DNA from: a virus | Direction: 5' to 3' (one strand) | IMG/VR virus record: IMGVR_UViG_3300013115_000353 | Coordinates: 1-64,000 of that record | DNA length: 64,000 nt | In this document: positions 16,833 through 32,452 of the stretch, piece after piece | Layout: each line of letters begins with the position of its first letter | How positions within the stretch are numbered: position 1 is the stretch's first letter | Notes under the pieces: model-generated | The model's database searches: none | What the model saw: the letters and a program-made list of their open reading frames with translations, nothing else | Told to the model about the DNA's origin: nothing | Translations under genes and position numbers: made by a program

Positions 16833-16839
16833 GTTGTAA

Positions 16840-17881: not shown

Positions 17882-18187
17882 TTAAAATGGTAGCTCGCCA
17901 ACGTGTTCAGTAATGGCTGGTGAGTTTTCAAACACTAACGGATGCCAAACGGAGTCAGCATAACGGGCAGCGATACCCACGTGGCAACTCGTTGTGTGCG
18001 TTGTAAAGTGTTTGGTGCGTGCTGTGTAGTCACCCACGATAGTGTAACCAGACTTAAGGCGCAACCCAATCAACTTACCGTATGACATCAAGTGTGTACC
18101 ATCTGTTGATAGTGAATGATTGCCGGTGCGGGCTTTGTTGCCTTGCGTCCATGCGTATACAACATCTACTCTTTTCTTAATACTCAT
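17882..18187 (-). CDS. Phage early-region hypothetical protein
   Basis: LSTDG..LMSYGKLIG..T.TTSCH pattern. Confidence 0.65.
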   Translation of the reverse strand: MSIKKRVDVVYAWTQGNKARTGNHSLSTDGTHLMSYGKLIGLRLKSGYTIVGDYTARTKHFTTHTTSCHVGIAARYADSVWHPLVFENSPAITEHVGELPF

Positions 18188-18396
18188 TTACTTATCCTCT
18201 CCATATGCCTAAGCAGTCCACGATCAAACAGGCGTGGCTGACTATCACCCACTAACAATACCTTATGATTCGTTATAGTAACTCCATCGTCGCGATGGAT
18301 AATGTCTTCGCCCAGATAGATACCCGTGCGACGGTTAAGATCATGGGTGTGCCCATTGATGTAACCAAGTTTAAATAGATCACCGGCTTGTAACAT
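18184..18396 (-). CDS. GDLV-family micro-gene
   Basis: MLQAGDLF start within junction repeat 18376-18406. Confidence 0.7.
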   Translation of the reverse strand: MLQAGDLFKLGYINGHTHDLNRRTGIYLGEDIIHRDDGVTITNHKVLLVGDSQPRLFDRGLLRHMERISK

Positions 18397-18613
18397 TAAC
18401 CACCTCGTAATACCTTGCGTTAAAACCTCTGTCGCTGAGTCCATCGCGAAGGTATCGCCGTTCCAGGTCTGTCACCACCATTAGGTTACCTGATATATCG
18501 TCTCTTATAGACAACACCAAACCCACGCGCCCGTCCATTTCAGGGAACATGCGTTTACCATTATCACACATACTGCTGATGTCTTTGAAACGTACCAGAT
18601 CACCGACTTTCAT
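18380..18613 (-). CDS. GDLV-family micro-gene
   Basis: MKVGDLV...YEVVNVTSR. Confidence 0.75.
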   Translation of the reverse strand: MKVGDLVRFKDISSMCDNGKRMFPEMDGRVGLVLSIRDDISGNLMVVTDLERRYLRDGLSDRGFNARYYEVVNVTSR

Positions 18614-18815
18614 TTACAACCTCGATATCATCAATGTTCACGATGTGAGTGTGACCGCTACCCCACGCAACGAGCCAGTGATGTCCGCGTGCATGATCCA
18701 GACGATGAAGGCCCATATCATCATCTGCTGGACGAATGACAACGCCAACAGTATCACTATAAAGCCTCCATGCCTCATCTGTTACAATCTCTTTTACTAA
18801 ATCACCGACTTGCAT
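18600..18815 (-). CDS. GDLV-family micro-gene
   Basis: MQVGDLV...IEVVNESR. Confidence 0.75.
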   Translation of the reverse strand: MQVGDLVKEIVTDEAWRLYSDTVGVVIRPADDDMGLHRLDHARGHHWLVAWGSGHTHIVNIDDIEVVNESR

Positions 18816-19404
18816 TTACAACCTCCAGGTTTTTAGCAGGATCCCAGAACGTACCGTAGCCGCCCCAGTTAACTTGCACGAGGCGTCTGCTTGCCACGTG
18901 ACCGGCAACATTGTCATCTATTGCGATGATAATACCCATACGCTTGGCTTGTGAAGCCCTGATCGCCTCGGTTCGCTTTGCTCGCTCTGGATTGGACTTG
19001 TACGTCACAAGCGCACCCACGGTGAAAGGGTCTACTGTGCTCTCCGTTAGGGTTGCTGTTGCAATCTTTTCGTCCCACGCCCTACCCGCGGCCTTCGCTT
19101 GCCAGATTGCATATGCGTTTTCAATATCTTTTCTGTGATCTTCGCTACCTTCCGTAATACGGATCCGGCTACGTGTTTTATTGTCCCACTCTGCGATACC
19201 CGCAAGGATCAACATCTCGCACGCAGTGTTACCGCTTGCATACGTTTGTGGGCCCATATCGGTGCCGGAAGATGGGCCACGCCGGTGTGCTTCAGTCGCA
19301 GCTTCCGCAACCGTCATTGACTTTACAGTCAACAACACAAACGCAATCAGCAACTCAGCCACGGTTAGCAGCGTGGGCCCGATCTTGATTAGGTTGTCTT
19401 TCAT
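18802..19404 (-). CDS. Hypothetical protein with C-terminal GDLV-family domain
   Basis: C-terminal FTVGALV...GIII...VQVNW...LEVVNASR. Confidence 0.65.
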   Translation of the reverse strand: MKDNLIKIGPTLLTVAELLIAFVLLTVKSMTVAEAATEAHRRGPSSGTDMGPQTYASGNTACEMLILAGIAEWDNKTRSRIRITEGSEDHRKDIENAYAIWQAKAAGRAWDEKIATATLTESTVDPFTVGALVTYKSNPERAKRTEAIRASQAKRMGIIIAIDDNVAGHVASRRLVQVNWGGYGTFWDPAKNLEVVNASR

Positions 19405-19611
19405 TTATGCCTCTACCGTGTCGGTAATCTCGGCAGCGAAGACCAACATAGCCTCCACCTGCTCAGGGGAAAGTGCCGCATCGGGTTGCGACTGCGCCAT
19501 CTGCGCATACAACGCAAGCTGGATAGCCATCACGTTACGGGTTGCTGCGCGTTGCTCCATTGGAGTCATCACGCGGGTAGTCTCAGGGGAATCGAGGACG
19601 AAATCAAACAT
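19405..19611 (-). CDS. Hypothetical protein
   Basis: SD AGGAG; abuts next gene. Confidence 0.55.
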   Translation of the reverse strand: MFDFVLDSPETTRVMTPMEQRAATRNVMAIQLALYAQMAQSQPDAALSPEQVEAMLVFAAEITDTVEA

Positions 19612-19622
19612 TATAGCTCCTT

Positions 19623-19910
19623 TTAGCCTTGCGCCAAGATTGCGGCCAACTCGCTCGCGGACAACTTATCCGCAGCCTTCTCGACGGTCGCGTTGAACAC
19701 GATGTCAGCGCCCGGCTTGCGGGTTGCGGTGACGCTGCCACCTTCGACGCCCAGAAGCAGAACGCCTCGGTTCGCCTTGCGCGGACGGAAGAAACCAACG
19801 GCTTTCATGCCGTTAGCGCGGACAGCCGTGCGGATCTGCGTTTTCGCGTCCTTCCACGTCACGCAGGAAGTGTCAGGGGTGGTCTTGAGGGTTCCGAGAG
19901 TCTTGGTCAT
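19623..19910 (-). CDS. Hypothetical basic early protein
   Basis: First gene after promoter 19941-19994; SD AAGGAG. Confidence 0.6.
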   Translation of the reverse strand: MTKTLGTLKTTPDTSCVTWKDAKTQIRTAVRANGMKAVGFFRPRKANRGVLLLGVEGGSVTATRKPGADIVFNATVEKAADKLSASELAAILAQG

Positions 19911-19940
19911 TGATAAGCTCCTTTCTTTAACTTATACTCT

Positions 19941-19994
19941 ATTATCTCATACGCGAGAGATGAAGTCAAGCCGGTTGTGTCAAGGGAATGTCAA
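19941..19994 (-). promoter_or_regulatory. Triple-TTGAC early promoter module
   Basis: TTGACA-N5-TTGACA-N8-TTGACT-N17-GATAAT. Confidence 0.8.
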
Positions 19995-20029
19995 AGGTGG
20001 AAAAATATTTTTAGGGTCCTGGAAGGCTC

Positions 20030-20065
20030 TGTGCTGGCTCCTGCCATCTCGGTCGAGCCAGCACA
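20030..20065. terminator. Hairpin, possible terminator
   Basis: TGTGCTGGCTC-N14-GAGCCAGCACA perfect 11-bp inverted repeat between a gene end and the next promoter. Confidence 0.45.
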
Positions 20066-20077
20066 CCAGCACACCAG

Positions 20078-20395
20078 CTACGAGCCACCACGGGCGCTCT
20101 CAGACGCCTCTGTGTCGGTGCTGTCGGCCTCTGCCATGATCTCGGCCACCTCACCCAGCGTCAACTGTCGATCCGCCTTCCGGCGCTTGTTGTAGGCGCG
20201 CTCCAGCTTGCCATACCGGCGACTGTTAACAGGGTGCTCGCACAGATGGATGTTCTCGATCCCCATGCGCTTGAACCGCTTAAGCTGCGCAACAGCGTTA
20301 GAAAATGAATCGGGACGGGTAAGGACATTTTCATATCCTGTAACCTTTCCATTTTCATTTAGAGTAACATAGGTTTTGGTAATGTAATACTTCAT
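20078..20395 (-). CDS. Hypothetical protein
   Basis: Start MKYYITK with SD GGAGG, just after the vWA gene stop. Confidence 0.6.
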   Translation of the reverse strand: MKYYITKTYVTLNENGKVTGYENVLTRPDSFSNAVAQLKRFKRMGIENIHLCEHPVNSRRYGKLERAYNKRRKADRQLTLGEVAEIMAEADSTDTEASESARGGS

Positions 20396-20396
20396 T

Positions 20397-21647
20397 TTAG
20401 CCCTCCACGGCAATGATGCGTTCGTTAGTTTGAAAGTATGGACGTGCAGCATAGGCTGGCGTCGTCATCCACATACGCTGACACCGACTGCCGATAGGCT
20501 TAGGTGCGCACAGATCAGTCAAGACGATATGCCCATCAAAATCACGCTCATTAACGTACTTGGTGGGCGGATCGAAGTCTGTGCCACCACACATTACACG
20601 TTCCCACGGGCGAGTCTGTCCTTTCTTCCAAACATAAATCTTATCCTCTCCAACCTCGGAGTCGAATGGGATAACAGTAAACTCGGCAATGTCTGACAGC
20701 TTGTTCAACTCAGCGAAGAACAGCGCCAGCATGCCGTCGTCCACCGATCCGCTCTGATCGATGCTGATCGCGATCTTCGCTTGACGGCGAACACGCTTGC
20801 CAGGATGCACACGAGGATAACGCTTGTTAAGGCGTCGGGGCGTGCTTCGCTTGTCGGCACGTTGTGACGTTTTAACAAAGTAACGCAGTACCTTGCGCCA
20901 ATCGACCTTAGTCGTGATCGAGTCCATGATCTGCTTACGCATCTGGCTCGACACGGATCCCCAGCTTCGCGCCTTGTCCGCTTCTTCTGCTGCCTTGCGT
21001 AGCGTTTCCTTCAAACGCTCTTTAGCGATCTCGTTGACGGTTCCGTCCGTCTCACCAAAATGCTGGTGATCATCGAAGCTATCAGCATCACCGATGCCGT
21101 TGCCTCCACCTTCACCAGGCTCGCCACCTTCGCCGTCACCGTCGCCCTTACCTTCGCCCTCATCCTCCAGCTTCGCCTTGTACCACTCGTATGTCTTACC
21201 AGCAGGGAGATGTGCGAATGGACCTTCGCCGGGCAGACAGCCCAGCATAGGCTTACCTGAAGGCATCATAGGACCGGGATCGCTCTCACTTGGCAGCTTG
21301 CCCTTCATTTCGGGCAACCCGTTGATAGACAGGTCCATAGCCACGTTGTCGATGCGCGTGATGCCGCCTTCCGGCATACGTCCCGTAACGTGCTGAAAGA
21401 TGATGTGATAGAACTCGTGCATAATGACGCCCAGACGATGTTCGTCTTTCAGTTGCGCCATGAACTTAGGGTTATACATTAGCTCAAACTGTGCACGTTC
21501 CTGGTTCACTCGCACGGCAGCAGTCGGAATAGACTCGGTGCGCGTCTTGTCGATGCGCCGTGAGAGCGCAGCAAAAAACGGCTCGCGCATGAGCAAACGG
21601 GCAGTGTGCTTGTTGAGATCAAAATCGAGGGTTTTGTCATCGGACAT
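20397..21647 (-). CDS. HEXXH metallopeptidase + vWA domain protein (DUF2201-like)
   Basis: MHEFYH; ISIDQSGSV MIDAS; GGTDF; LTD. Confidence 0.85.
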   Translation of the reverse strand: MSDDKTLDFDLNKHTARLLMREPFFAALSRRIDKTRTESIPTAAVRVNQERAQFELMYNPKFMAQLKDEHRLGVIMHEFYHIIFQHVTGRMPEGGITRIDNVAMDLSINGLPEMKGKLPSESDPGPMMPSGKPMLGCLPGEGPFAHLPAGKTYEWYKAKLEDEGEGKGDGDGEGGEPGEGGGNGIGDADSFDDHQHFGETDGTVNEIAKERLKETLRKAAEEADKARSWGSVSSQMRKQIMDSITTKVDWRKVLRYFVKTSQRADKRSTPRRLNKRYPRVHPGKRVRRQAKIAISIDQSGSVDDGMLALFFAELNKLSDIAEFTVIPFDSEVGEDKIYVWKKGQTRPWERVMCGGTDFDPPTKYVNERDFDGHIVLTDLCAPKPIGSRCQRMWMTTPAYAARPYFQTNERIIAVEG

Positions 21648-21670
21648 AAAAGTTTTCTCCTTACTCTATA

Positions 21671-21724
21671 AATATACACGCAAACGGGACAGAAGTCAAT
21701 AGCCAAATGTCAAGAACTCGTCAA
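21671..21724 (-). promoter_or_regulatory. Triple-TTGAC early promoter module
   Basis: TTGACG-N5-TTGACA-N8-TTGACT-N17-TATATT. Confidence 0.8.
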
Positions 21725-21938
21725 GAGTGATCCAGTCGATTCCGATCTTCATTTCATCCACCCATTCATTCTTTCGTGTGTCCTTTGCCCACACCTTATA
21801 TTCCATTCGTTTTTCGATTGTTCCGTATCGTGGTTTGCGTGTGGGGCGCACTTCTAAAACGATACCCGTCTCTGCGTTGCCTATAATGGGGGTGCGAAAT
21901 AAAAGATCGCCCGTTCCTATGCCTTTGCGCTCCGTCAA
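21696..21938 (-). CDS. GDLV-family micro-gene (divergent)
   Basis: GTGDLL...TGIVLEV...YKVW. Confidence 0.6.
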   Translation of the reverse strand: MTERKGIGTGDLLFRTPIIGNAETGIVLEVRPTRKPRYGTIEKRMEYKVWAKDTRKNEWVDEMKIGIDWITLDEFLTFGY

Positions 21939-22162
21939 CTTATAACTTCCAAGTCTCGCGTATCGTATGCCAGCGTTCCAGCCTTCACGGCACGTGCAGG
22001 TTTAATAAACCGCAACAACACAAACCGTTCACGCTCATTAGGGATGGAACCATCCCACTCTTCTGCGCCATCACGCCACCCGACAACAAGTGCCAGGTTA
22101 GGCGTATGCATCCGGGTAACCGTCACAAGGTTACCCGGCTTTGCGGATACGCTACTCATCAT
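21935..22162 (-). CDS. GDLV-family micro-gene
   Basis: KPGNLV...LALVV...DLEVIS. Confidence 0.65.
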   Translation of the reverse strand: MMSSVSAKPGNLVTVTRMHTPNLALVVGWRDGAEEWDGSIPNERERFVLLRFIKPARAVKAGTLAYDTRDLEVIS

Positions 22163-23235
22163 CCACCCAAGATTTCCACAAGGTGCTCGCTCACCTTGGT
22201 GCCCGATGCCGTCTCAGCCTGGTGCAGTCGCACCACATTGTCAATGACATCAGCGTCACCCAGCACCGTCCACAACTTCATTGCAACCTCTGACGGAAGC
22301 TGCACAAAGTAGTTAGCGAGGTTAGTGATACGCTCGTCTGACAACTCAGCCTTGAATACCTCTGATGCCTCAAACTTCTCGATCATCGCGCTGTGATCGT
22401 TGATGCCCCACTGCTCCGTCTTTTCAAGGGCACCATCATCAAGGATATCCTCAATAGTCACCTGCCATTCGTACTTGTCAACGAAGTCACGCAATGCAAC
22501 CGCAGCTTCAAAGCCCAGGAACGCACAAGCGAGGTTGTACAGCAGATCGGAATCGCCTTCCTTCTCGAAAACGCCCGTATCGGCTACGGTATCGTTAAAC
22601 CGCTTCCACGAGCGACGAGACGGGTACACCTTGTTAGGCTCAAACTCGCCCTGATGCTCCAGGTGGGCATGGTTGTGGTTAACAAAATCCCACACAACCA
22701 CATTGACGTTACTCTTTGCCCACTTCAGCCAGTCTTCCACAGTCGGCTCGACATCGAACACCGCCCAGCGATCAAGCTCGGCAGGATCCATCTCACCCAC
22801 TTGGTACTGCGCACCGTGTTCGCCACCGTTGACGGCAGCGATGATCAGCGTCTCAGGGTGCAGACGCCAGCCGTTGATCTTGCGGCTATCCGTCAACTCG
22901 AAGAGGCCCTGACGGACTTCCATCGTCGCGCGGTCCACCTCGTCAAGGAACAGCACCACCGGCTGCTCACAGGCAGTCACGAGCCAGTCTGGAGCGTTCC
23001 ACGTTGTCGCCTTGCGCCCATTGATCGAAGTCTCAGCGGTATCGGGCAGACCCAGAAGGTCACCCTCTGTCATCTGTGACGCTCGACGCTCGACAACGGG
23101 TAGCGTCATCTTGTCAGCGATCATGTAGACCACCTCAGATTTACCAAGTCCGTGCTTGCCGCGAATGAGTACGGGCAGCTTCGCTTTCAGAATGAAAGGA
23201 ACGGAACCGAGAAAAGTGTTAAAGTCTACTGCCAT
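22159..23235 (-). CDS. MoxR-like AAA+ ATPase
   Basis: Walker A GKHGLGKS, Walker B LFLDEVDR, AAVN sensor, DPAELDRW, PSRRSW. Confidence 0.9.
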   Translation of the reverse strand: MAVDFNTFLGSVPFILKAKLPVLIRGKHGLGKSEVVYMIADKMTLPVVERRASQMTEGDLLGLPDTAETSINGRKATTWNAPDWLVTACEQPVVLFLDEVDRATMEVRQGLFELTDSRKINGWRLHPETLIIAAVNGGEHGAQYQVGEMDPAELDRWAVFDVEPTVEDWLKWAKSNVNVVVWDFVNHNHAHLEHQGEFEPNKVYPSRRSWKRFNDTVADTGVFEKEGDSDLLYNLACAFLGFEAAVALRDFVDKYEWQVTIEDILDDGALEKTEQWGINDHSAMIEKFEASEVFKAELSDERITNLANYFVQLPSEVAMKLWTVLGDADVIDNVVRLHQAETASGTKVSEHLVEILGG

Positions 23236-23278
23236 GTGATTGTCTCCGGGGAGGATGAAAAGTTTTGCTTACTCTATA

Positions 23279-23333
23279 AATATATACCCGATGGGCCTAA
23301 AAGTCAAGGTGTTTCTTGTCAAGTAAATGTCAA
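23279..23333 (-). promoter_or_regulatory. Triple-TTGAC early promoter module
   Basis: TTGACA-N5-TTGACA-N9-TTGACT-N17-TATATT. Confidence 0.85.
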
Positions 23334-23551
23334 TCGTTGCAAGGGGGGTGAGACCAGTTCTCACATTGCCAATCGCTGATCTGTCCGTCGCGACACAGAT
23401 TGTCTGTCCAGTTGTTCCAGCACTCCCGACGAGCGGGATAGTCAGGCTCTCCGTCCTGCTCATAATCCTGCTGGATATAGGGCAGAAGATCAAGGGTGAA
23501 AATCTCGCACGCTTGTGCGAAAGTCATGACGGTGTCGAGGTTTGATGGCAT
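23330..23551 (-). CDS. Phage hypothetical protein
   Basis: D.PARRE.WNNWTD.LCRDG.IS.WQ..NW pattern. Confidence 0.65.
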   Translation of the reverse strand: MPSNLDTVMTFAQACEIFTLDLLPYIQQDYEQDGEPDYPARRECWNNWTDNLCRDGQISDWQCENWSHPPCND

Positions 23552-23580
23552 CGGGGTAACTCCTTTCTTGATGATGTCTT

Positions 23581-23634
23581 ATTATCTCATATGCGAGAAG
23601 AAAGATCAAGGGTTTTTTGTCAAGTAAATGTCAA
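23581..23634 (-). promoter_or_regulatory. Triple-TTGAC early promoter module
   Basis: TTGACA-N5-TTGACA-N8-TTGATC-N17-GATAAT. Confidence 0.8.
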
Positions 23635-24425
23635 CCCTTCTTGTCGTCAAAATGCCTGTCGGTAACCCTGGAAGAACCTGCGTAATAATCGGCAGGGATT
23701 TTATCCCACCCGTTCGCTGGCGCTCTTGTCACGAGCGTGCGAGCGTCGTAACCGTCTGGATCTCCATCGGTCGCCCAAGAGCCCATCTGTCGCCCACCAG
23801 AAATCTTAACACCTGTCTTGTCGTCTTCTTCGTAAAGGTGTGGCAGCGGAAAACTGGTTGTGCCTCGACTGCCCACCTTACACACTTGATCCAACCGGCG
23901 CACCATAAGCGGCTGCGGGTTTCGCACTTGATCAGTGATGTTGTCCCAGTTAATAGAAACAACCATATAGGGATAGTTACGTGCTTCATATACCTGATCG
24001 CCGTTACCATCGGGATAATAGCCATAGCTATTATAGCTAATGGTAGCGCCAACGCCAATACCTTCACGCTTCAGGGCAGCAACCACCTTCTTACGCACGA
24101 TGCCATTTTGTTTTGCTGCTTCCTTTCGATCCTTCTTAAGTTGCTTGCACGTGCGGCGAGTGTGCCCGATGCCTTCATCACCCCACGAGCCATGCACAAA
24201 CTTACAATAGGAGCAACGCCGAACGATACCCGCTCTGCGGTTCACCTTTGCGCCAGTGCGGGGATCGGTGCCGGTACGCTTGGCAAGTAGCTCACCCCAG
24301 TGATCGATAGAGGCTTGCTGCTTATCCTCAACTGCCATATCATAACGCTGTTGCAACCTCTCAGTAATCTGAGGGCAGGTGCGCTTGTTGTGTCCATATT
24401 TCCAGCACGATGAGCATCGATTCAT
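23631..24425 (-). CDS. Double zinc-knuckle protein
   Basis: CSSCWKYGHNKRTC and CSYC...GHTRRTC. Confidence 0.75.
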   Translation of the reverse strand: MNRCSSCWKYGHNKRTCPQITERLQQRYDMAVEDKQQASIDHWGELLAKRTGTDPRTGAKVNRRAGIVRRCSYCKFVHGSWGDEGIGHTRRTCKQLKKDRKEAAKQNGIVRKKVVAALKREGIGVGATISYNSYGYYPDGNGDQVYEARNYPYMVVSINWDNITDQVRNPQPLMVRRLDQVCKVGSRGTTSFPLPHLYEEDDKTGVKISGGRQMGSWATDGDPDGYDARTLVTRAPANGWDKIPADYYAGSSRVTDRHFDDKKG

Positions 24426-24456
24426 GTTTTCTATCCTTTCTCAAAGGTTATGCTCT

Positions 24457-24510
24457 ATTCTCTCATAGATCAGAGGAGAAGTCAAGCGGTAAATGTCAAG
24501 TGAATGTCAA
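24457..24510 (-). promoter_or_regulatory. Triple-TTGAC early promoter module
   Basis: TTGACA-N5-TTGACA-N8-TTGACT-N17-GAGAAT. Confidence 0.8.
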
Positions 24511-25316: not shown

Positions 25317-25336
25317 GTTTTTCTCCTTACTCTCTA

Positions 25337-25391
25337 AATATACACCCGAACAGGGCAGAAGTCAAGTTCTTTCTTGTCAAGTAAATGTCAA
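25337..25391 (-). promoter_or_regulatory. Triple-TTGAC early promoter module
   Basis: TTGACA-N5-TTGACA-N9-TTGACT-N17-TATATT, then AGTAAGGAG SD. Confidence 0.85.
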
Positions 25392-25594
25392 GACTCTTCT
25401 GACTCGTAAACCGGCTCGAATCTGTCTGCTCGATCATAAACCTGAGACAGTTTAACATCTCCGACAGGCTTAACAAACTTTACTTTGTACGCTCCCCAGT
25501 CAGCATCCCACATTATGTGTTCCATAACGAGCCCGATGCCACCGGTGCGTTTGTGTCGCACGAGCGATCCAACTGTAATACGTCTACGATTCAT
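25388..25594 (-). CDS. GDLV-family micro-gene
   Basis: MNRRRITVGSLV...; ATGA overlap with the upstream gene. Confidence 0.7.
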   Translation of the reverse strand: MNRRRITVGSLVRHKRTGGIGLVMEHIMWDADWGAYKVKFVKPVGDVKLSQVYDRADRFEPVYESEES

Positions 25595-25770
25595 TTTATA
25601 ACCTCCAAGTTTTCCCCTAAACACGAGAAACTATGACCGTCGAGCGCATGACACTCGTAGATAAGGCGCGTTTCACCAGCGGAATCCTCCGCTGAATGAC
25701 GGATCCGCACAATCAAAGCCATAATCATATCGGGGTGTGTTTTAACATAAACCAAATCACCTACCTGCAT
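25591..25770 (-). CDS. GDLV-family micro-gene (59 aa, not in track)
   Basis: MQVGDLVYVKTHPDMIMALIV...ENLEVIK. Confidence 0.75.
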   Translation of the reverse strand: MQVGDLVYVKTHPDMIMALIVRIRHSAEDSAGETRLIYECHALDGHSFSCLGENLEVIK

Positions 25771-25939
25771 GCGTCACCACATAAGCTGATGCCTGCACCC
25801 ATTCATTGCCTTCGTCCGCCAGCTTTATCCAGCCGGGTGCCGTGCGGACTACCAAATATACCCTTCCTACACGCAGAGGCGGGGGCTTAGTATGTTCTAC
25901 CAGATCGCCTATCTGTATTCTCGGATTACGCAGTCCCAC
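25757..25939 (-). CDS. GDLV-family micro-gene
   Basis: IQIGDLV...VVTHAGR. Confidence 0.7.
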   Translation of the reverse strand: MGLRNPRIQIGDLVEHTKPPPLRVGRVYLVVRTAPGWIKLADEGNEWVQASAYVVTHAGR

Positions 25940-26108
25940 TGATCACCTCCAAATCTCGTGATAGTAAGCGGACTGTACGTCCGTTTGTAAACTGTATTTC
26001 AAAGACCAAGGTGTTGCCGTGCGTGAAGTGACGCACAATCAAGCCAACCGAGCCTTTTGGTAGCCCGATAGATGCGCGTTTGATCTTTACTAAGTTACCG
26101 ACTTGCAC
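25926..26108 (-). CDS. GDLV-family micro-gene
   Basis: MQVGNLV...DLEVISGTA. Confidence 0.75.
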   Translation of the reverse strand: MQVGNLVKIKRASIGLPKGSVGLIVRHFTHGNTLVFEIQFTNGRTVRLLSRDLEVISGTA

Positions 26109-26262
26109 TTATAACCTCACACTTCCACGCTGTAAAGCCTGTTCTCACACGCCCTGTCTTTAAAAACCTTAAATCTACATATAGAAAGTTCCCGATCTGT
26201 ACCCTATCGAGCACAATCGCAAGGTTACCCTTTTGGGTTTTTACCAAGTCACCGACTTTCAT
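26095..26262 (-). CDS. GDLV-family micro-gene (55 aa, not in track)
   Basis: MKVGDLVKTQKGNLAIVLDRVQIGNFLYVDLRFLKTGRVRTGFTAWKCEVISASR. Confidence 0.8.
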   Translation of the reverse strand: MKVGDLVKTQKGNLAIVLDRVQIGNFLYVDLRFLKTGRVRTGFTAWKCEVISASR

Positions 26263-26425
26263 TTATAACCTCCAGGTCACGCTTAGGGTTACTGGTACGC
26301 AAGTTGTTTTCTTTATTCCACTGAACAACTTGCGTCTCATCGGTCCCTGGTATTTGTTTAATCACAATACCGACCCAATGAGCCCAATCCTCGTGTTTAT
26401 ATTTTACCAGATCACCGACTTTCAC
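26249..26425 (-). CDS. GDLV-family micro-gene (58 aa, not in track)
   Basis: MKVGDLVKYKHEDWAHWVGIVIKQIPGTDETQVVQWNKENNLRTSNPKRDLEVINESR. Confidence 0.8.
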   Translation of the reverse strand: MKVGDLVKYKHEDWAHWVGIVIKQIPGTDETQVVQWNKENNLRTSNPKRDLEVINESR

Positions 26426-26579
26426 TGATCACCTCGCATTGAGCGCCCCAAAAGCCTGTTCTGAGGTATCCGGTTTTTAAGAACATTATATTCACATATA
26501 GCTGACCGGCAATCATATACCTCTCTACAACAATCGCAAGGTTACCCTTGTGAGTTTTTACCATATCACCGACTTTCAT
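26412..26579 (-). CDS. GDLV-family micro-gene (55 aa, not in track)
   Basis: MKVGDMVKTHKGNLAIVVERYMIAGQLYVNIMFLKTGYLRTGFWGAQCEVISESR. Confidence 0.8.
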   Translation of the reverse strand: MKVGDMVKTHKGNLAIVVERYMIAGQLYVNIMFLKTGYLRTGFWGAQCEVISESR

Positions 26580-26769
26580 TTATAACCTCGATCTCGTTAA
26601 GGGGCAACCACCCGAACCATTCGCCCGAACGCAGAAAGATACACCTGACACCCGCAAAGCAGATCGGCTCGTCTTCTCGCACCAGCTTGAACACCGGTCC
26701 ATGCTCGCGCAAACGGTTACGTGTGCGGGAAGATGCGCGGGGTGCGGCCTTGATAGTAATCAACTTCAT
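26566..26769 (-). CDS. Small protein ending in the junction repeat; probably leaderless
   Basis: MKLITIK...IEVINESR; ATG 6 nt after the -10 box. Confidence 0.7.
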   Translation of the reverse strand: MKLITIKAAPRASSRTRNRLREHGPVFKLVREDEPICFAGVRCIFLRSGEWFGWLPLNEIEVINESR

Positions 26770-26775
26770 ACCAAT

Positions 26776-26830
26776 AATATACACCCGATAGCCCTAAAAG
26801 TCAAGTGCTGTCCTGTCAAGTAAATGTCAA
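26776..26830 (-). promoter_or_regulatory. Triple-TTGAC early promoter module
   Basis: TTGACA-N5-TTGACA-N9-TTGACT-N17-TATATT. Confidence 0.85.
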
Positions 26831-27033
26831 GACTCGTTTAATAACATCAGAGCCCTCGTATCTTCTCCGTCGTACACTTTTCCTTCGTCAAGCCAGTACA
26901 CATCCACACTATGACCCCCGTGAGCGGTTGGGGTTTCGGGATAGGTGCGAGTAATGACGCCCATAGGAATCTTATCCTCGCATTCTCGCAACCATTCAGG
27001 ACTAATCCGAACCAGATCACCAACTTTAAACAT
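26827..27033 (-). CDS. GDLV-family micro-gene
   Basis: MFKVGDLV...VDVYW...LLNES. Confidence 0.75.
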   Translation of the reverse strand: MFKVGDLVRISPEWLRECEDKIPMGVITRTYPETPTAHGGHSVDVYWLDEGKVYDGEDTRALMLLNES

Positions 27034-27275
27034 TATCCTACTTTCTCCCACCTGAACTCGTGTATTATTAAATATAACTGTCCGCGCCTCAAAACGCAAA
27101 GATCGCCTGTATTCAATGGAATAGATGCGGGTAGTGGCGCGCCGGCATCGTCTCCTAAACAATGCTGCATTACGTCATACCGGCTAAGATCACGCACCAT
27201 GCCCTCACGAGCAACGATCACGATGCCGATGTCACCGCTCGGCAAATGTTTTAATATATCGCCAGCTTTAAACAT
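27033..27275 (-). CDS. GDLV-family micro-gene
   Basis: MFKAGDIL...IGIVI. Confidence 0.7.
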   Translation of the reverse strand: MFKAGDILKHLPSGDIGIVIVAREGMVRDLSRYDVMQHCLGDDAGAPLPASIPLNTGDLCVLRRGQLYLIIHEFRWEKVG

Positions 27276-27492
27276 CTTCGCTCCGTGCGCTCGATAGAAT
27301 CCTTACAAAAGATGCTAAATGCCAGTCATGATCGATATATGGCGCTTTGATCTTTACATATTTAATGTTTTTATGGAAAGAACCACGAAAACGCACATCT
27401 GTGATCAAGCCTATATATCCCGTTGGTAGCCCACCAGCATTATAAACCTCCACAAGATCGCCTACGTCTGCGTGATCGCCGTGATTGTTCAT
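27268..27492 (-). CDS. GDLV-family micro-gene
   Basis: DVGDLV...IGLIT. Confidence 0.7.
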   Translation of the reverse strand: MNNHGDHADVGDLVEVYNAGGLPTGYIGLITDVRFRGSFHKNIKYVKIKAPYIDHDWHLASFVRILSSARSEDV

Positions 27493-27782
27493 CCTTCCAC
27501 CTTTGTTTTGATCACTTCAGATTCATAGTTAAAGTGGTCCCAGGTGCGCTCGGACCACAGTCTGTATACCTGTGTAAGCCGCTCGCTATCCATTTCGTCT
27601 AACTGTTCCTTTCTCCACGGTGGGTATTCCTTTTCGTCTCTGTCGTCATCAAAATACTCTTCGTAGATGCCAAGATAGTCGAGAACATCACCAACAGCCA
27701 CGAGCAATGCACCCTTCAGTGTGAGATGGGTCGAAACAGATAGCTCGCCATCGTATCTAACCACAAACGTCCAGATGTTCAT
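27489..27782 (-). CDS. Hypothetical protein
   Basis: ATGA overlaps on both sides. Confidence 0.65.
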   Translation of the reverse strand: MNIWTFVVRYDGELSVSTHLTLKGALLVAVGDVLDYLGIYEEYFDDDRDEKEYPPWRKEQLDEMDSERLTQVYRLWSERTWDHFNYESEVIKTKVEG

Positions 27783-27991
27783 GAAACCACCTCAAACTTG
27801 CTCGCCATGAAGTGCGATTCGCGGGCGGCGGATCCTGCATAGACGGGATGGGGTTTAAACCACTTCACTGCCAGGTGCAGCGCGCCCGTGTCGCGGTTTT
27901 TTGCGCACCTCAACACATACCCACAATGCCCCACAAACTCAGGATACTGATCATGAGAGCTATCAACAAATCTGACTATTTTTCCTATCAT
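27779..27991 (-). CDS. GDLV-like micro-gene; probably leaderless
   Basis: MIGKIV...AVKW...FEVVS; ATG 6 nt after the -10 box. Confidence 0.65.
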   Translation of the reverse strand: MIGKIVRFVDSSHDQYPEFVGHCGYVLRCAKNRDTGALHLAVKWFKPHPVYAGSAARESHFMASKFEVVS

Positions 27992-27997
27992 GACTAT

Positions 27998-28052
27998 AAT
28001 ATACACCCCGTGGCCCTAAAAGTCAAGGGCAACCGTGTTAAGAGAATGTCAA
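27998..28052 (-). promoter_or_regulatory. Triple-TTGAC early promoter module
   Basis: TTGACA-N5-TTAACA-N9-TTGACT-N17-TATATT. Confidence 0.8.
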
Positions 28053-28249
28053 GACTCGCTGATGACTTCCAGTTCTGGTTGGTATACCCAGCCCTGTGTG
28101 TTATTCGCCCAGCTAACATAATATACATTTTTCCCGTGCGGTGCATCCCGTTTAATCTCTATCACAACGCCTATTTTGCCTCGTTTGTCAGTGTGTGGTT
28201 GTAACCACGCGGCTACTTTCCGTAACCTCACCATGTCACCCACTTTCAT
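28049..28249 (-). CDS. GDLV-family micro-gene
   Basis: MKVGDMV...IGVVIE...YYVSW...LEVISES. Confidence 0.75.
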   Translation of the reverse strand: MKVGDMVRLRKVAAWLQPHTDKRGKIGVVIEIKRDAPHGKNVYYVSWANNTQGWVYQPELEVISES

Positions 28250-28556
28250 CTTCAAACCTCCTTAATCCAGTGTAACCTTCCTTGTATCCAATGATTTTAC
28301 CATCTTTCCAAACCCTATTTAAAAGTTCGTGTTTCTCCTCTGGTGTGATATAATAATATGATGGGTCTTCGATGATGCCCTCTATGGGATGGTGTACTTT
28401 ATAAACTGGATAGTCGGCTTGTATCCAGCCCTTCGGGCTGGGGTTTTCTGCGTCCCACTCTATTACTTCAAGCACCACGCACCATCCACCTGGCATCCTT
28501 TCCTGCCAAATCACATCACCGGCATTTACAATGTGCATTGTGTCAACATACTTCAC
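28236..28556 (-). CDS. GDLV-family protein (extended)
   Basis: NAGDVI...VVLEV. Confidence 0.65.
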   Translation of the reverse strand: MKYVDTMHIVNAGDVIWQERMPGGWCVVLEVIEWDAENPSPKGWIQADYPVYKVHHPIEGIIEDPSYYYITPEEKHELLNRVWKDGKIIGYKEGYTGLRRFEDESG

Positions 28557-28737
28557 TTACCACCTCCAGATTCGTCCAGTTGTGCAAGGTTTGTGTTCCA
28601 TCGGGCGAAAGGTCGGGCCCATTATGGAGCAGAATCCACGTACTACCCTCGACTTTAACCACGAGAAACACCCCTTTCTCAGACTCACGGTATGGGTATC
28701 GGAATCTCACCAAATCGCCAGCTTTAAAGGGTGTCAT
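28543..28737 (-). CDS. GDLV-family micro-gene
   Basis: FKAGDLV...LEVVSEVC. Confidence 0.75.
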   Translation of the reverse strand: MTPFKAGDLVRFRYPYRESEKGVFLVVKVEGSTWILLHNGPDLSPDGTQTLHNWTNLEVVSEVC

Positions 28738-28925
28738 TTAGCACCTTTCCACGCCAATAGTTCATCTTCCACGCCAGCAACCAAAGTGTAATCCCATACC
28801 CACGTCAAACTACAGTCCATTCCCTGCCAGAGAACCAGCACACGTTGTGCGTGCGGCGAACCAAACTTAATAATGATACCATAACGAGAATCTCGCTTCT
28901 CGCGAACCCAATCACCTGCTTTCAC
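28734..28925 (-). CDS. GDLV-family micro-gene
   Basis: MKAGDWV...YGIII...VLVLW. Confidence 0.75.
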   Translation of the reverse strand: MKAGDWVREKRDSRYGIIIKFGSPHAQRVLVLWQGMDCSLTWVWDYTLVAGVEDELLAWKGAK

Positions 28926-29100
28926 TTATCACCTCTATATCACTCGCTGCCATATATTCCATTTCGCCGTCACGCCATCGGACCTGATACATTGTCAGCG
29001 GTGCAACGCCTTCAATAGCCTCAATGATTATACCAACTTGCCCGTTTCCATTGTGAAACGACTCAGGCATCAGACTTTTAACCAGATCACCTAACTTCAC
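28912..29100 (-). CDS. GDLV-family micro-gene
   Basis: MKLGDLV...YQVRW...IEVISESR. Confidence 0.8.
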   Translation of the reverse strand: MKLGDLVKSLMPESFHNGNGQVGIIIEAIEGVAPLTMYQVRWRDGEMEYMAASDIEVISESR

Positions 29101-29272
29101 TTACCACCTCAAACAGCCCCGCAAAGGCACTATCTTCAAGCCAATCATCAAGCCACACAAAATCAATATAGTTATAAACAGATTCGTTAATGGTTCCTTT
29201 TGATATACGACTACGCAATACGATCCCTAAATGTCCACTCGATATATGTCTAATCAGATCACCGGGTTTCAT
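29087..29272 (-). CDS. GDLV-family micro-gene
   Basis: MKPGDLI...FEVVSEVR. Confidence 0.8.
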   Translation of the reverse strand: MKPGDLIRHISSGHLGIVLRSRISKGTINESVYNYIDFVWLDDWLEDSAFAGLFEVVSEVR

Positions 29273-29444
29273 TTAATAGCTCCAATACACCAGCGGTGCA
29301 ACGACTTCTCCCCAGATGTGTGGGGATCCACTGCACGCTATATTCAGGTGCAAGTGTCGCGTTGAGAGGTAGATACTCTCTGACGATGACACCCATTAAA
29401 TACGTGTCTTGTCTCTTGTGTTTCACCAAGTCACCGACTTTCAT
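29259..29444 (-). CDS. GDLV-family micro-gene
   Basis: MKVGDLV...YSVQW...LELLNETR. Confidence 0.8.
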   Translation of the reverse strand: MKVGDLVKHKRQDTYLMGVIVREYLPLNATLAPEYSVQWIPTHLGRSRCTAGVLELLNETR

Positions 29445-29614
29445 TTAACCACCTCTATCTTTGATACGCTCCAACTGCCTTTTCCGTGGCGCGTCATCAC
29501 GGTAACATGATCAATAGTGAGCAGTGCCCCTGTTATTCTCGATGGTATCTCGATGATCAGTGCCACCTCTTCGCGCCCGTTAATGGTGCGCTTTACCAGA
29601 TCACCGATTTTCAT
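29441..29614 (-). CDS. GDLV-family micro-gene (57 aa, not in track)
   Basis: MKIGDLVKRTINGREEVALIIE...SKIEVVK. Confidence 0.75.
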   Translation of the reverse strand: MKIGDLVKRTINGREEVALIIEIPSRITGALLTIDHVTVMTRHGKGSWSVSKIEVVK

Positions 29615-29759
29615 CTAACTGCCCCTTGTGCTTCACCTGACGGACGTAGCCGCGCTTGCTGTGGTATCCGGCGCCACGCCTACCCGTTAGCCCCTTGGAG
29701 TGAACCACGAGCCAGTTACGAGCCTTGGGGGGCTTGTTCTTGTTGCGCTTTCGAGCCAT
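29601..29759 (-). CDS. Small very basic protein (52 aa, not in track), possibly ArfA-like
   Basis: MARKRNKNKPPKARNWLVVHSKGLTGRRGAGYHSKRGYVRQVKHKGQLDENR; first gene after promoter, SD AAGGAG. Confidence 0.6.
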   Translation of the reverse strand: MARKRNKNKPPKARNWLVVHSKGLTGRRGAGYHSKRGYVRQVKHKGQLDENR

Positions 29760-29778
29760 AATATCTCCTTACTCTCTA

Positions 29779-29832
29779 AATATACACCCCAGAGAGCTAA
29801 AAGTCAAGGGGTAGATGTCAGGTAAATGTAAA
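29779..29832 (-). promoter_or_regulatory. Triple-TTGAC early promoter module (degenerate upstream boxes)
   Basis: TTTACA-N5-CTGACA-N8-TTGACT-N17-TATATT; abuts tRNA-Thr CCA. Confidence 0.75.
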
Positions 29833-29833
29833 A

Positions 29834-29909
29834 TGGAGCCCAAGATCAGAATCGAACTGATGACCTTTTCCCTACCAAGGAAATGCTCTGCCAACTGAGC
29901 TACCTGGGC
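29834..29909 (-). tRNA. trnT: tRNA-Thr(GGT)
   Basis: GCCCAGGTAGCTCAGTTGGCAGAGCA-TTTCC-TT-GGT-AG-GGAAA...TTCGATT...CTTGGGCTCCA; full cloverleaf with CCA. Confidence 0.95.
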
Positions 29910-29910
29910 G

Positions 29911-30027
29911 CTAATCTTTAAGTTTGTTTTTTAAGTTTTCAATCAGTTTTTGAAAATGTTTAATAGCATTTTCATATGCTTCAATACTTTCTTCGACTTG
30001 TTTTGTTTCTTCTTTTGTTAATGACAT
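29911..30027 (-). CDS. Small coiled-coil peptide (38 aa, not in track)
   Basis: MSLTKEETKQVEESIEAYENAIKHFQKLIENLKNKLKD; SD GGAGGA. Confidence 0.55.
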   Translation of the reverse strand: MSLTKEETKQVEESIEAYENAIKHFQKLIENLKNKLKD

Positions 30028-30056
30028 CTTTCCTCCTTTAAGTTATAAATGTAAAT

Positions 30057-30193
30057 AAGAGGATCCCCGTTGTGCGATCTTGCTCACACTGCTAACCTCC
30101 CTTTAACTGTTTGTTGCTGTCTCACTTCAGACATGCTTGTGGTTCGTAGGAGATATTGAACCACTCCACTTATAAGTTATCGGGGATCCTCTT
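30057..30193 (-). ncRNA. Candidate structured ncRNA (13-bp closing stem + three internal hairpins)
   Basis: AAGAGGATCCCCG/CGGGGATCCTCTT; internal GTGGTTC/GAACCAC, TGTCT/AGACA, GTGTGA/TCGCAC. Confidence 0.55.
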
Positions 30194-30201
30194 TAAAATA
30201 G

Positions 30202-30423
30202 TCACTTTGTTACGGCTCCATTTATCACCTCAATCTCATAGTTGTTTTCGTTAATAACACCCTGCACCGTGCCGGTCCTGGTGCATCGTCCAGGTATCAA
30301 TATATCCCATAGTCCATCATCGGGGGGCGGATACTTACGCATTACCAGACAAGGCCCCACCCATAAATCATACGGCGGTGGCTGAAAGTTGGCCTTGTAC
30401 CTAATCAAATCACCTACCTTCAC
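30202..30423 (-). CDS. GDLV-family micro-gene
   Basis: MKVGDLI...IEVING. Confidence 0.75.
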   Translation of the reverse strand: MKVGDLIRYKANFQPPPYDLWVGPCLVMRKYPPPDDGLWDILIPGRCTRTGTVQGVINENNYEIEVINGAVTK

Positions 30424-30616
30424 TGATTACCTCCACCTCTGCTCTTTTAAACCACATCTCTCTCACCCATTTACTCTCAATGGTAATATGGGGTCTGTGG
30501 AAATGTACCAATATATAATCGCCCTGAACACTTGTTGCTCTTTCCCATTTAACTATTACACCCACCATATGATGCCCAGTTCGTCTATATGGCCGCACCA
30601 GATCACCTATTTTCAC
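30410..30616 (-). CDS. GDLV-family micro-gene
   Basis: GTG start MKIGDLV...VEVISEGR. Confidence 0.75.
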   Translation of the reverse strand: MKIGDLVRPYRRTGHHMVGVIVKWERATSVQGDYILVHFHRPHITIESKWVREMWFKRAEVEVISEGR

Positions 30617-30818
30617 TAAGCACCTCCAAGAACTCATCATCGGACAGGTATTCAGCGGAAAATGTCCCGTGATCGGGACACGTCCAGTGAATCGTGATGA
30701 CCTCGTTGTACGCATACTGTACGCATTTTGTTATAATACCTTTCCAGTCGCCACAATACGCAAAACCGGGATCCAGCACGTGCTCTGTTGTAAACCTAAC
30801 CAAATCACCTACTTTCAT
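30603..30818 (-). CDS. GDLV-family micro-gene
   Basis: MKVGDLV...LEVLSENR. Confidence 0.8.
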   Translation of the reverse strand: MKVGDLVRFTTEHVLDPGFAYCGDWKGIITKCVQYAYNEVITIHWTCPDHGTFSAEYLSDDEFLEVLSENR

Positions 30819-30984
30819 TTATAACCTCGTATTCATATGATGCCTTCGGAAAATGCAGTTCGATTCGCTTGGACTCATTCAAAATAATAAACTTGTTTGG
30901 ACGATCTTCAACCAGATACCCGATGTGCTCTGAGTTGGAAAGGTTGTCTTTCAGTCTGATTCTAATCTTTGGAAAGTCTTTCAT
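30805..30984 (-). CDS. Small protein ending in the junction repeat (59 aa, not in track)
   Basis: MKDFPKIRIRLKD...YEYEVINESR. Confidence 0.7.
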   Translation of the reverse strand: MKDFPKIRIRLKDNLSNSEHIGYLVEDRPNKFIILNESKRIELHFPKASYEYEVINESR

Positions 30985-31178
30985 TTTATAACCTTTAGCT
31001 GATAGCTGTTTTGTTGTTTGATTCTACCCTGAAGAAAGTTCCACGATACCCAAACGGGATAAGTTACACTAATAGGGCAGTTCTGCACATCGACAACTAT
31101 TCCTAATGATAGCGGACACTTATGAGAGTCACGCGCTGCTCCATCCATCTTAAGAGTTACTAAATCACCCACCTTCAT
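30981..31178 (-). CDS. GDLV-family micro-gene
   Basis: MKVGDLV...VWVSW...LKVIK. Confidence 0.8.
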   Translation of the reverse strand: MKVGDLVTLKMDGAARDSHKCPLSLGIVVDVQNCPISVTYPVWVSWNFLQGRIKQQNSYQLKVIK

Positions 31179-31419
31179 TTATAACCTCCACATGAACCGC
31201 ATACCGTCGAATCCTCTTTCCTTCTGTGGTTAGAATAAACATAGTACGAACAGGTGCCTCTGCAATCTGCTCTGCCGTATATGCTTCTGGAGAACGATTG
31301 TGTGTTTCAAGAACAATACCATATGTGTACGGAGGCATAACGCATCGCTTCTTCGTACACCATCCTTCTCGCACCAGATCGCCCACTTGTGCGCAGTGTC
31401 CCGGTTTAACTGCCTTCAT
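31165..31419 (-). CDS. GDLV-family micro-gene
   Basis: QVGDLV...VEVINEGG. Confidence 0.75.
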   Translation of the reverse strand: MKAVKPGHCAQVGDLVREGWCTKKRCVMPPYTYGIVLETHNRSPEAYTAEQIAEAPVRTMFILTTEGKRIRRYAVHVEVINEGG

Positions 31420-31597
31420 TTATAACCTTCAATAACATTCTTTTAAACCAGCCCTTGTCTGCGTTTTTGTTTGCCCATATAATAAGACACTCATTCCCTC
31501 GACATTGAACAACCAAACCGGGACAAAAAATATCACGGCTCACGTCATTCAAATGAACGATTAGATCGCCTACACTGGGGGCACCGCTACTTTTCAC
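31406..31597 (-). CDS. GDLV-family micro-gene
   Basis: SVGDLI...LKVINEGS. Confidence 0.75.
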   Translation of the reverse strand: MKSSGAPSVGDLIVHLNDVSRDIFCPGLVVQCRGNECLIIWANKNADKGWFKRMLLKVINEGS

Positions 31598-31784
31598 TTA
31601 TAACCTCCACTTCGCTTTCATACGTCACAGATGTTCCATCTCTTAATGTCCATTTTGGGTTAGCCCATAAGACCGCCCATCTCGCATCGCCATCGTCGTC
31701 ATCGAAAAGAAACTTAACCACCAGCCCAATACCAAAGTCCTGTCCAGGGCCCTCAACACGCTGTACTAAATCACCCGGTTTCAT
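31587..31784 (-). CDS. GDLV-family micro-gene
   Basis: MKPGDLV...WAVLW...VEVISEK. Confidence 0.75.
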   Translation of the reverse strand: MKPGDLVQRVEGPGQDFGIGLVVKFLFDDDDGDARWAVLWANPKWTLRDGTSVTYESEVEVISEK

Positions 31785-31893
31785 CTGGCTGACTCCACAA
31801 GTATTTAATGTATGCGCCCAGAAAAGGCAGCGAAGAACCCCATAGAACGAGAAACGATAGCTCCTGATGGCAGTTAGCAAACAAGTGTTCCAT
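31771..31893 (-). CDS. Small membrane peptide (40 aa, not in track)
   Basis: MEHLFANCHQELSFLVLWGSSLPFLGAYIKYLWSQPDETG; overlaps both neighbours. Confidence 0.5.
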   Translation of the reverse strand: MEHLFANCHQELSFLVLWGSSLPFLGAYIKYLWSQPDETG

Positions 31894-32267: not shown

Positions 32268-32268
32268 T

Positions 32269-32433: not shown

Positions 32434-32452
32434 TTTTTCTCCTTACTCTATA

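Follow-up and report, generated by a model that had tools for sequence, protein, structure and literature searches.

What does it mean for a phage genome when a row of very small, divergent genes is joined, boundary after boundary, by one and the same short sequence? The question is raised by an array of micro-genes on the minus strand of the marine phage record IMGVR_UViG_3300013115_000353 (IMG/VR; 85,455 bp), of which the first 64 kb (64,000 nucleotides (nt)) are referred to below as the window. In this array, a junction of about 30 nt ends one gene and begins the next. A preliminary description of the locus had proposed that recombination between such junctions would insert, delete or reorder whole genes while keeping frame and translational coupling, and comparison with related phages supports that proposal. 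The explanation we favor, to which we assign a probability of roughly two in three, is that the array is a chain of translationally coupled, SH3/KOW-like micro-genes, or cassettes, whose shared boundary acts as a short-homology linker, resulting in rapid cassette turnover on a slowly changing backbone.

The junction and cassette turnover among relatives

A scan of the window with a degenerate pattern of the junction gave 11 matches with at most three mismatches, all on the minus strand, and none at the same threshold in 100 dinucleotide shuffles. With up to eight mismatches there are 16 copies, again on the minus strand, and independent repeat finding returned the same 16 as one repeat family (D1). 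The earlier count of about 19 is slightly high; it is reached only if weak partial copies are included (18371-18403, 25748-25780 and 27011-27040). The starts listed at that time (26108/26262/26425/26579, 28925/29100/29272/29444/29614 and 30423/30616/30818) are indeed the start codons of chained minus-strand open reading frames (ORFs) of 55-77 amino acids. The dual reading that had been described also holds. In one frame, GAG GTT ATA AAT GAA AGT CGG TGA gives EVINESR and a stop; in the other, ATG AAA GTC GGT GAT CTG GT gives MKVGDLV, and consecutive genes overlap by 14 nt. More generally, the upstream frame reads EV(I/V)(N/S)ESR-stop, with a GGAGG Shine-Dalgarno (SD) site. In the type copy (26243-26272), the Glu-Val codons form the SD (GAGG), the ATG occupies junction positions 11-13 and the TGA positions 22-24. 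Three ORFs that lack the GDLV start, namely 26566-26784, 30805-30984 and 18802-19404, nonetheless terminate in the junction. Between junctions the DNA is open and variable, with 25-40% amino acid identity between paralogs in the window.

Relatives were retrieved with one cassette as the query. The resulting 124 loci (44 from IMG/VR and 80 from metagenomes) are all marine, and their backbones are syntenic with that of this genome, at protein identities of 57-80% for MoxR and 52-74% for the VWA-type protein. They contain 1,147 genes of the cassette family, with 4-40 cassettes per genome. Together with this genome they provide about 670 adjacent pairs of family genes. The overlap is exactly 14 nt in 512 of these pairs, 4 nt in 73 and 10 nt in 29. 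The logo of the 484 distinct junctions found lineage-wide is TGGAGGTnATcA[A/G]TGAAAGTCGGTGA[T/C][T/C]T[G/A]GT. The stop codon TGA is built from the GGT-GA of Gly4-Asp5 in the next gene, and the tail alternates between Asn and Ser because the next start alternates between ATG and GTG (AAT-G versus AGT-G). The first five codons of the next gene thus produce the tail (N/S)ESR as a by-product. Family members with no member following them end soon after EVI, with short and variable tails. Programmed frameshifting at the junction was also considered and was rejected, as the consensus shows no slippery site.

The order and content of the cassettes are not identical among these relatives. Loci L002 and L044 have backbone flanks that are 98.9% identical over 9,148 nt, and between them cassettes are reordered, inserted and deleted; the successive cassettes of L002 map onto those of L044 as -,1,12,-,0,-,5,-,-,6,-,7,8,9, at identities of 92 to 100%. 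The array is scrambled in the same manner between L001 and L032, whose backbones are 86.7% identical, and single-cassette insertions and deletions separate L033 from L092 on a collinear backbone. Backbone genes at 75-87% nucleotide identity, by comparison, are collinear over 6-16 kb. A homologous neighbor is retained by 58% of cassettes at 98-100% cassette identity, by 17-20% at 90-98%, and by 3% at 80-90%. For cassettes at least 1.5 kb from the ends of their loci, at 90-98% identity, a homologous neighbor was found in 2 of 33 cases (14 locus pairs).

The changes are bounded by the junctions. When all loci were compared with one another, blocks with at least 85% identity had 188 of their 245 left ends within -20 to +9 of a family start codon and 149 of their 209 right ends within +10 to +29. 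The junction thus accounts for 71-77% of block ends, compared with about 13% of random positions. In several pairs of loci, identity is confined to a single cassette, rising to 93-100% at the start codon and dropping at the stop, between flanks of about 30-45%, i.e., unalignable (cassettes L034#14/L042#7, L005#8/L009#10, L033#9/L092#3 and L032#6/L044#2). Such islands are present even where the genome backbones are only about 80% identical. One of them, at L034 7039-7224 and L042 9998-10186, is a cassette about 99% identical in genomes with backbones about 80% identical, which points to a recent horizontal transfer of a single 186-nt gene.

We weighed these observations against the possibility that the cassettes are ordinary old tandem paralogs, i.e., the products of ancient duplications, inherited vertically, with a junction that is kept by protein and SD constraints and has no role in rearrangement. 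The low identity of the paralogs in the window is in line with this view, as are the collinearity of near-identical strains and the fact that SD, start codon and dual coding explain the conservation of the junction, free synonymous sites being variable. What this view does not accommodate is that phages with 98.9% identical flanks have different sets of cassettes in a different order, that neighbors are lost at 90-98% cassette identity, that islands of identity one cassette long lie between unalignable flanks, and that block ends cluster in the junction. We therefore regard it as unlikely.

An assembly artefact, with the ~30-nt junction serving as a repeat at which assemblers switch from one strain or cassette to another, appears to us slightly less likely still. 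Contigs assembled with k=31, for which breaks at such repeats are to be expected, do break at junctions, and the 'joints' that they yield are spurious, each side being 20-33 nt long; the loci L002 and L032 both terminate inside their arrays. However, the exact runs common to different junctions are mostly 9-16 nt long, far under the k-mers and read lengths of the source assemblies. Different collections or assemblies yield identical arrays: the records L024 and L086, L037 and L038, and L022 and L083 are 100% identical pairs, with arrays of 9-18 cassettes. Other studies also yielded contigs that are collinear with the array of the window, at about 98% identity (27883-29432, for example, with 25 differences). 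The neighbor result persists when cassettes closer than 1.5 kb to a locus end are left out, and also in complete 190-kb genomes, and a chimera cannot account for a 99% identical cassette in genomes whose backbones are about 80% identical. As for the junction-to-junction joints in the k=31 contigs, which came from four runs, they give no evidence of circles or deletions; their very high depth and 20-33-nt sides identify them as junction k-mers of other phages.

Several points weigh against the explanation that we favor. The relatives are all short-read metagenome assemblies, and in two of the best pairs an array, that of L002 or L032, lies at a contig end, the part of an assembly that is least to be trusted. 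Strains that are 98-100% identical to the window show no rearrangement, and no event was caught in progress. As all junctions are alike, any alignment extends into them by default, which limits the resolution of the crossover point to ~35 nt. When junctions of the same locus are compared in pairs, their longest exact common run is 13 nt in the median and 36 nt at most; homology this short is marginal for RecA-type exchange. Some of the loss of neighbors could, moreover, reflect crossovers within shared cassettes and not in the junctions. On present evidence we nevertheless consider the cassette shuffling to be real.

Coding constraint and the recombination genes of the phage

The preliminary description had raised the question of whether synonymous positions in the junction are more conserved than dual coding requires. 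For the most part they are not. Synonymous sites free of a second constraint (upstream frame: -5 and -2; downstream frame: +14, +17 and +20) vary nearly freely, and in the logo of the 484 junctions the information content at -5, -2 and +20 is 0.18-0.46 bits. Where a second constraint does apply, codon choice follows it. The Glu at the SD position is encoded by GAG in 388 of 396 overlapped junctions, against 177 of 210 genes with no recognised following member. Gly4 is GGT in all 463 overlapped starts, against 207 of 325 non-overlapped ones, because GGT supplies the T of the TGA. Val3 is GTC in 72% of overlapped starts, compared with 36% of non-overlapped ones. GTG is the start codon in 49% of overlapped cassettes and in 9% of the non-overlapped, first-in-run cassettes of all loci, an excess in internal genes that would be expected if these are translated by coupling. 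Junction-centered 70-mers (n=8) have folding z-scores of -1.7 to +1.1 and no common hairpin; that is, the junction is unstructured as a single strand. Judged from these patterns, nothing in the junction demands a recombination signal at the nucleotide level. Of the three observations that the preliminary description had named as speaking against its proposal, this one was therefore made, while the other two, an identical gene order in relatives and breakpoints away from the junctions, were not.

A dedicated cassette system of the integron, diversity-generating-retroelement or CRISPR type, in which a specific enzyme recognises the junction and moves the cassettes, would be favored by the extremely uniform register, with 512 junctions at the same 14-nt overlap. 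It would also be favored by the similarity of junctions, which is slightly higher within a locus (0.763) than between loci (0.742), a difference of about 8 standard deviations. The remaining evidence makes such a system highly improbable. No tyrosine integrase, serine resolvase or reverse transcriptase was found in the 85-kb contig; the preliminary description had already seen no integrase or reverse transcriptase in the window. The IntI-type tyrosine recombinase profile PF00589 has no match in the contig or in five complete relatives (191-195 kb), in a search in which the control genomes were all positive; the reverse transcriptase profile PF00078 has none in the contig, which is weak evidence, as the contig is 44% complete. 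The junction has neither hairpin nor palindrome, and its conservation relaxes wherever dual coding is absent.

The layout had been likened to a CRISPR or integron array, and as a mechanism this analogy falls with the lack of an integrase, resolvase or reverse transcriptase in the contig and of a hairpin in the junction. We rejected an integron because neither an IntI-type integrase (in the contig or in five complete relatives) nor a folded site of the attC kind was found. A CRISPR array was also rejected: the 'spacers' are ORFs under purifying selection and predicted beta-barrels, and the repeat is coding in two frames. A diversity-generating retroelement was set aside for want of a reverse transcriptase match in the contig.

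In our favored explanation, the lineage carries a hyper-diverse family of single-domain barrels, encoded as translationally coupled chains behind sigma-70-like, probably early promoters. The final GAG-GT of each gene doubles as the SD of the next, and the next ATG/GTG-AAA-GTC-GGT-GA yields the tail (N/S)ESR and the stop. As a result, all gene boundaries share one ~35-nt sequence, always in one register. This boundary could then act as a short-homology linker for recombination between junctions, either within one genome (duplication, deletion) or between co-infecting relatives (replacement, insertion). The likely agents would be the phage's own RecA/UvsX-like recombinase (PF00154, 1.5e-36), gp32-like single-stranded DNA-binding protein and FEN nuclease (a 5'-3' exonuclease of the FEN type); template switching during replication is the other candidate. 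Each exchange would remove, duplicate, insert or swap one whole gene, with frame, SD, start and coupling kept in the product, whose viability would be guaranteed by the uniform register. The outcome would be fast turnover of cassettes on a slowly changing backbone, and a pool of more than 3,000 protein variants in the population.

The protein family, the array and the phage

A hidden Markov model (HMM) of the family, built from 15 clear members, detects about 35-40 copies between 14 and 36 kb of the 85-kb contig, N-terminally extended forms included. The proteins of this fast-diversifying family typically have 55-75 amino acids. Their conserved positions lie in three strands, the first (GDLV), the second (G-x-V-I) and the last (LEVI), and the segments between them vary in sequence and length. 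AlphaFold2, run with 108 homologues, predicts a five-stranded barrel (strands 6-9, 18-25, 31-36, 43-47 and 51-55) with a predicted local distance difference test (pLDDT) score of 91. The best structural match is the Spt5 KOW domain (4zn3_A; Z 10.0, root-mean-square deviation 1.9 over 57 residues), followed by the NusG KOW domain and PsaE (Z 8.4-8.6), and by Tudor and R67-DHFR-like barrels. The top Foldseek match is the Lon specificity factor 5ycq, with a template modeling (TM) score of 0.78. The predicted cassette fold is thus the same five-stranded barrel as that of the SH3/KOW/Tudor-like small barrels (Spt5/NusG KOW, PsaE, NdhS, HspQ, R67 DHFR), from which the cassettes differ in having no match to any Pfam or NCBI-style family. 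Such matches, made with a predicted model, set the fold and not the function.

Database searches are consistent with an unnamed family. Among ten family members, the Pfam KOW profile (PF00467) gave no match at E<=1; the best Pfam match of family members, Spin/Ssty at E 0.002, is under its cut-off, and their PHROGs matches are all sub-threshold. In the ESM Atlas there are only unnamed viral clusters, and we found nothing relevant in the literature on a tandem SH3-like micro-gene family in marine phages. The family is nonetheless very large. A full HMM scan of 1.84 billion representatives in public data recovered 3,269 clusters at 50% identity (E<=1e-3), whereas a word-based search gave 693 matches. 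The word-based search found no longer fused forms, but the exhaustive HMM search did: a few of its clusters are in-frame fusions of two or five family domains, so the cassette chain can also occur as a repeat protein. Of three such proteins from public metagenomes (P0124/P0121/P0122), one has 370 amino acids and five tandem family domains joined by EEEKVMKFKVGD linkers, and the other two have two domains each.

Cassette interiors are under purifying selection: in 115 pairs, the median ratio of non-synonymous to synonymous rates (dN/dS) is 0.14. It follows that turnover of working genes, and not decay, renews the diversity. As a working hypothesis, and on a modeled fold, the conserved barrel core, the variable loops, the early-promoter context, the fast turnover and the huge pool probably fit a repertoire of host-protein binders, which would probably serve host takeover or counter-defence; the effector library suggested in the preliminary description is likewise a guess.

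The features of the array are collected in Table 1. Ten copies of an intergenic module of 55-71 nt, each with several TTGAC motifs and a promoter-like site TTGACT-17-TATATT, lie on the minus strand at 19940-32507. These modules divide the array into predicted transcription units but are distinct from the cassette boundaries. Between 5 and 9 overlapping genes follow one another downstream of the sites, which a consensus scan predicts as promoters. The modules might constitute a second, PeSL-like set of exchange points (see below). Within unit D there is an A-B-A' pattern, in which 26412-26579 and 26095-26262 have 84% column identity and an unrelated cassette lies exactly in between. In the outlying block, the 200-residue ORF carries the family domain at its C-terminus (residues 129-200, E 3e-6 with the family HMM), and the last gene has the start MLQAGDLF and an overlap of 17 nt.

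Table 1. Features of the micro-gene array, in window coordinates (transcription units and promoters are predictions)
Feature	Position	Strand	Basis
Type junction copy	26243-26272	-	GAGGTTATAAATGAAAGTCGGTGACTTGGT; 0 mismatches to pattern
Outlying block, four chained family genes	18184-19404	-	ORFs, HMM matches; junction copies 18594-18623 and 18796-18825, weak copy 18371-18403
Members of outlying block	18802-19404 (200 aa), 18600-18815, 18380-18613, 18184-18396	-	ORFs
Unit D, eight chained cassettes	25388-26784	-	ORFs, HMM; junctions 26560-26589, 26406-26435, 26243-26272, 26089-26118
Cassettes of unit D	26566-26784, 26412-26579, 26249-26425, 26095-26262, 25926-26108, 25757-25939, 25591-25770, 25388-25624	-	
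Unit C, diverged members	26827-28006: 27779-28006, 27268-27492, 27033-27275, 26827-27033	-	ORFs, HMM
Conserved non-family gene in unit C	27489-27782	-	orthologues in many relatives
Unit B	28049-29759	-	ORFs, HMM; junctions 29595-29624, 29425-29454, 29253-29282, 29081-29110, 28906-28935
First ORF of unit B, basic, 52 aa	29601-29759	-	
Cassettes of unit B	29441-29614, 29259-29444, 29087-29272, 28912-29100, 28734-28925, 28543-28737, 28236-28556, 28049-28255	-	
Unit A	30202-31784	-	ORFs, HMM; junctions 31159-31188, 30799-30828, 30597-30626, 30404-30433
Cassettes of unit A	31587-31784, 31406-31597, 31165-31419, 30981-31178, 30805-30984, 30603-30818, 30410-30616 (GTG start), 30202-30423	-	
Scattered diverged family members	14105-17079: 14105-14326, 15101-15340, 16337-16594, 16840-17079	-	HMM, E 6e-4 to 0.2
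Further scattered diverged members	21935-22162, 32504-32764, 32938-33129, 35010-35369		HMM, E 6e-4 to 0.2
Sigma-70-like promoter module TTGACT-17-TATATT, head of unit A	32453-32481	-	consensus scan; repeat families D3, D5, D6 (55-71 nt)
Sister promoter modules	29807->29779, 28026->27998, 26804->26776, 25365->25337, 23307->23279, 21699->21671	-	consensus scan
Weaker promoter modules	19969, 24485, 23609	-	consensus scan

An Rfam search of the array matched only tRNAs. A tRNA-Thr (GGT) lies within it, adjoining a stretch of about 290 nt with no ORF or Rfam match (window 29834-30200). Further on, a tRNA-Arg and a tRNA-Met are found at 34020-34094 and 34903-34978, and a sub-threshold tmRNA/tRNA-like match (22 bits) at 33934-34018. 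The G+C content, about 38-47% in most of the remaining window, rises to 50-53% at window 18001-26000, where the MoxR/VWA genes and the first cassette blocks are located; this region may have a separate origin.

The record has an estimated completeness of 44%, which corresponds to a genome of about 190 kb. Complete members of the lineage measure 191-195 kb, one of them with terminal repeats. Nearly all genes of the record are on the minus strand, and those that are recognisable include a DnaE-type polymerase, GroEL, a MoxR ATPase with its VWA-type partner, two ClpP genes, Dam and N4/N6 methylases and IMPDH/GMP reductase. The genes for the recombination proteins named above, with the RecA/UvsX-like gene at genome positions 72284-73435 and the gp32-like gene at 74678-75445, are accompanied by those for a DnaB-like helicase and a class II ribonucleotide reductase (RNR). 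With genome positions 64001-85455 (L125) and window positions 47670-59027 taken into account, the phage encodes RecA/UvsX-like, gp32-like, FEN, DnaB-like and RNR proteins, a family-A polymerase fragment, GroEL, two ClpP proteins and MoxR/VWA, a set that is unusual in combination with a DnaE-type replicase. DNA and protein comparison found no close cultured phage, and the capsid protein has no match in PHROGs. Among GenBank phages the array had no match at the DNA level, and a tblastn comparison with a cassette found none either.

Relation to known shuffling systems

Motif-mediated shuffling of small early genes is known from T4-type phages. In their hyperplastic regions, small, non-essential and mostly early ORFs are bounded by copies of a short conserved motif (Arbiol et al. 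2010, PMC2839356; Comeau et al. 2014, PMC4122927). This promoter-stem-loop (PeSL) motif is non-coding, about 100 bp long, and consists of a promoter and a stem-loop terminator that flank unrelated ORFans; close relatives differ by the insertion, deletion or replacement of single ORFs, the exchange points lie in the motif, general homologous recombination has been proposed, and excised mini-circles with a single ORF and one chimeric motif belong to the picture (PMC2839356, PMC4122927). The array described here is similar in that its small ORFs, too, are bounded by a recurring conserved motif (16 copies in the window, 484 distinct junctions in the lineage), in that close relatives differ by insertions, deletions and replacements with exchange points in the motif, and in that the products would stay expressible. 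It differs in that the junction, ~35 nt long, is coding and unstructured rather than a sigma-70 promoter with a stem-loop terminator. It comprises a C-terminal strand and tail, an SD, and the next start with its N-terminal strand; it links members of one protein family, and it keeps translational and not transcriptional continuity. The phage also differs from the hosts of PeSL motifs: it is not T4-like, having a DnaE-type polymerase and a capsid protein that PHROGs does not recognise. In the array described here, the boundary motif itself codes for protein. The logic of PeSL shuffling would appear, from this comparison, to have moved from a non-coding promoter-terminator motif to a coding joint that couples translation.

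With integron arrays the locus has in common a unit of gain, loss and reordering that is one gene bounded by a repeated site, and a pool of cassettes in the population. Its small genes, too, stand in rows downstream of predicted promoters and may be read from them, as the promoterless cassettes of integrons are. Unlike in integrons, the genes overlap and are all homologous, and their exchange is presumably by short homology. Gene accordions in viruses, such as that of poxvirus K3L, change copy number under host pressure by recombination between repeated units, and consist of transient runs of near-identical copies of one gene. The cassettes here, by contrast, are old and diverse (25-40% identity), and their turnover exchanges different family members between genomes.

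We also entertain, tentatively and with the odds rather against it, a more far-reaching interpretation, in which the dual-frame junction would be no mere by-product, and second-order selection would keep it in register because it lets phage populations reassort thousands of single-domain binder genes. Each genome would then sample 4-40 cassettes, and new combinations would arise by short-homology exchange in co-infections. The array would in that case be an integrase-free counterpart of the integron at the level of translation, with cassettes as host-specific takeover or anti-defence factors, or as adaptors for the AAA+/ClpP machinery of the phage.

In the explanation that we favor, one stretch of ~35 nt is at once a protein terminus, a ribosome-binding site, a stop and a start, and any exchange in register would give a working chain of genes. 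The array thus offers a testable example of phage accessory genes that can be turned over far faster than the backbone diverges. The analysis also reveals that an abundant lineage of marine phages of about 190 kb, so far uncultured, carries SH3/KOW-like micro-proteins that belong to an unnamed and very large family, with over 3,000 clusters at 50% identity. If the cassettes are host-directed binders, such arrays would record the arms races between phages and their hosts, and would amount to a natural library on a minimal scaffold.

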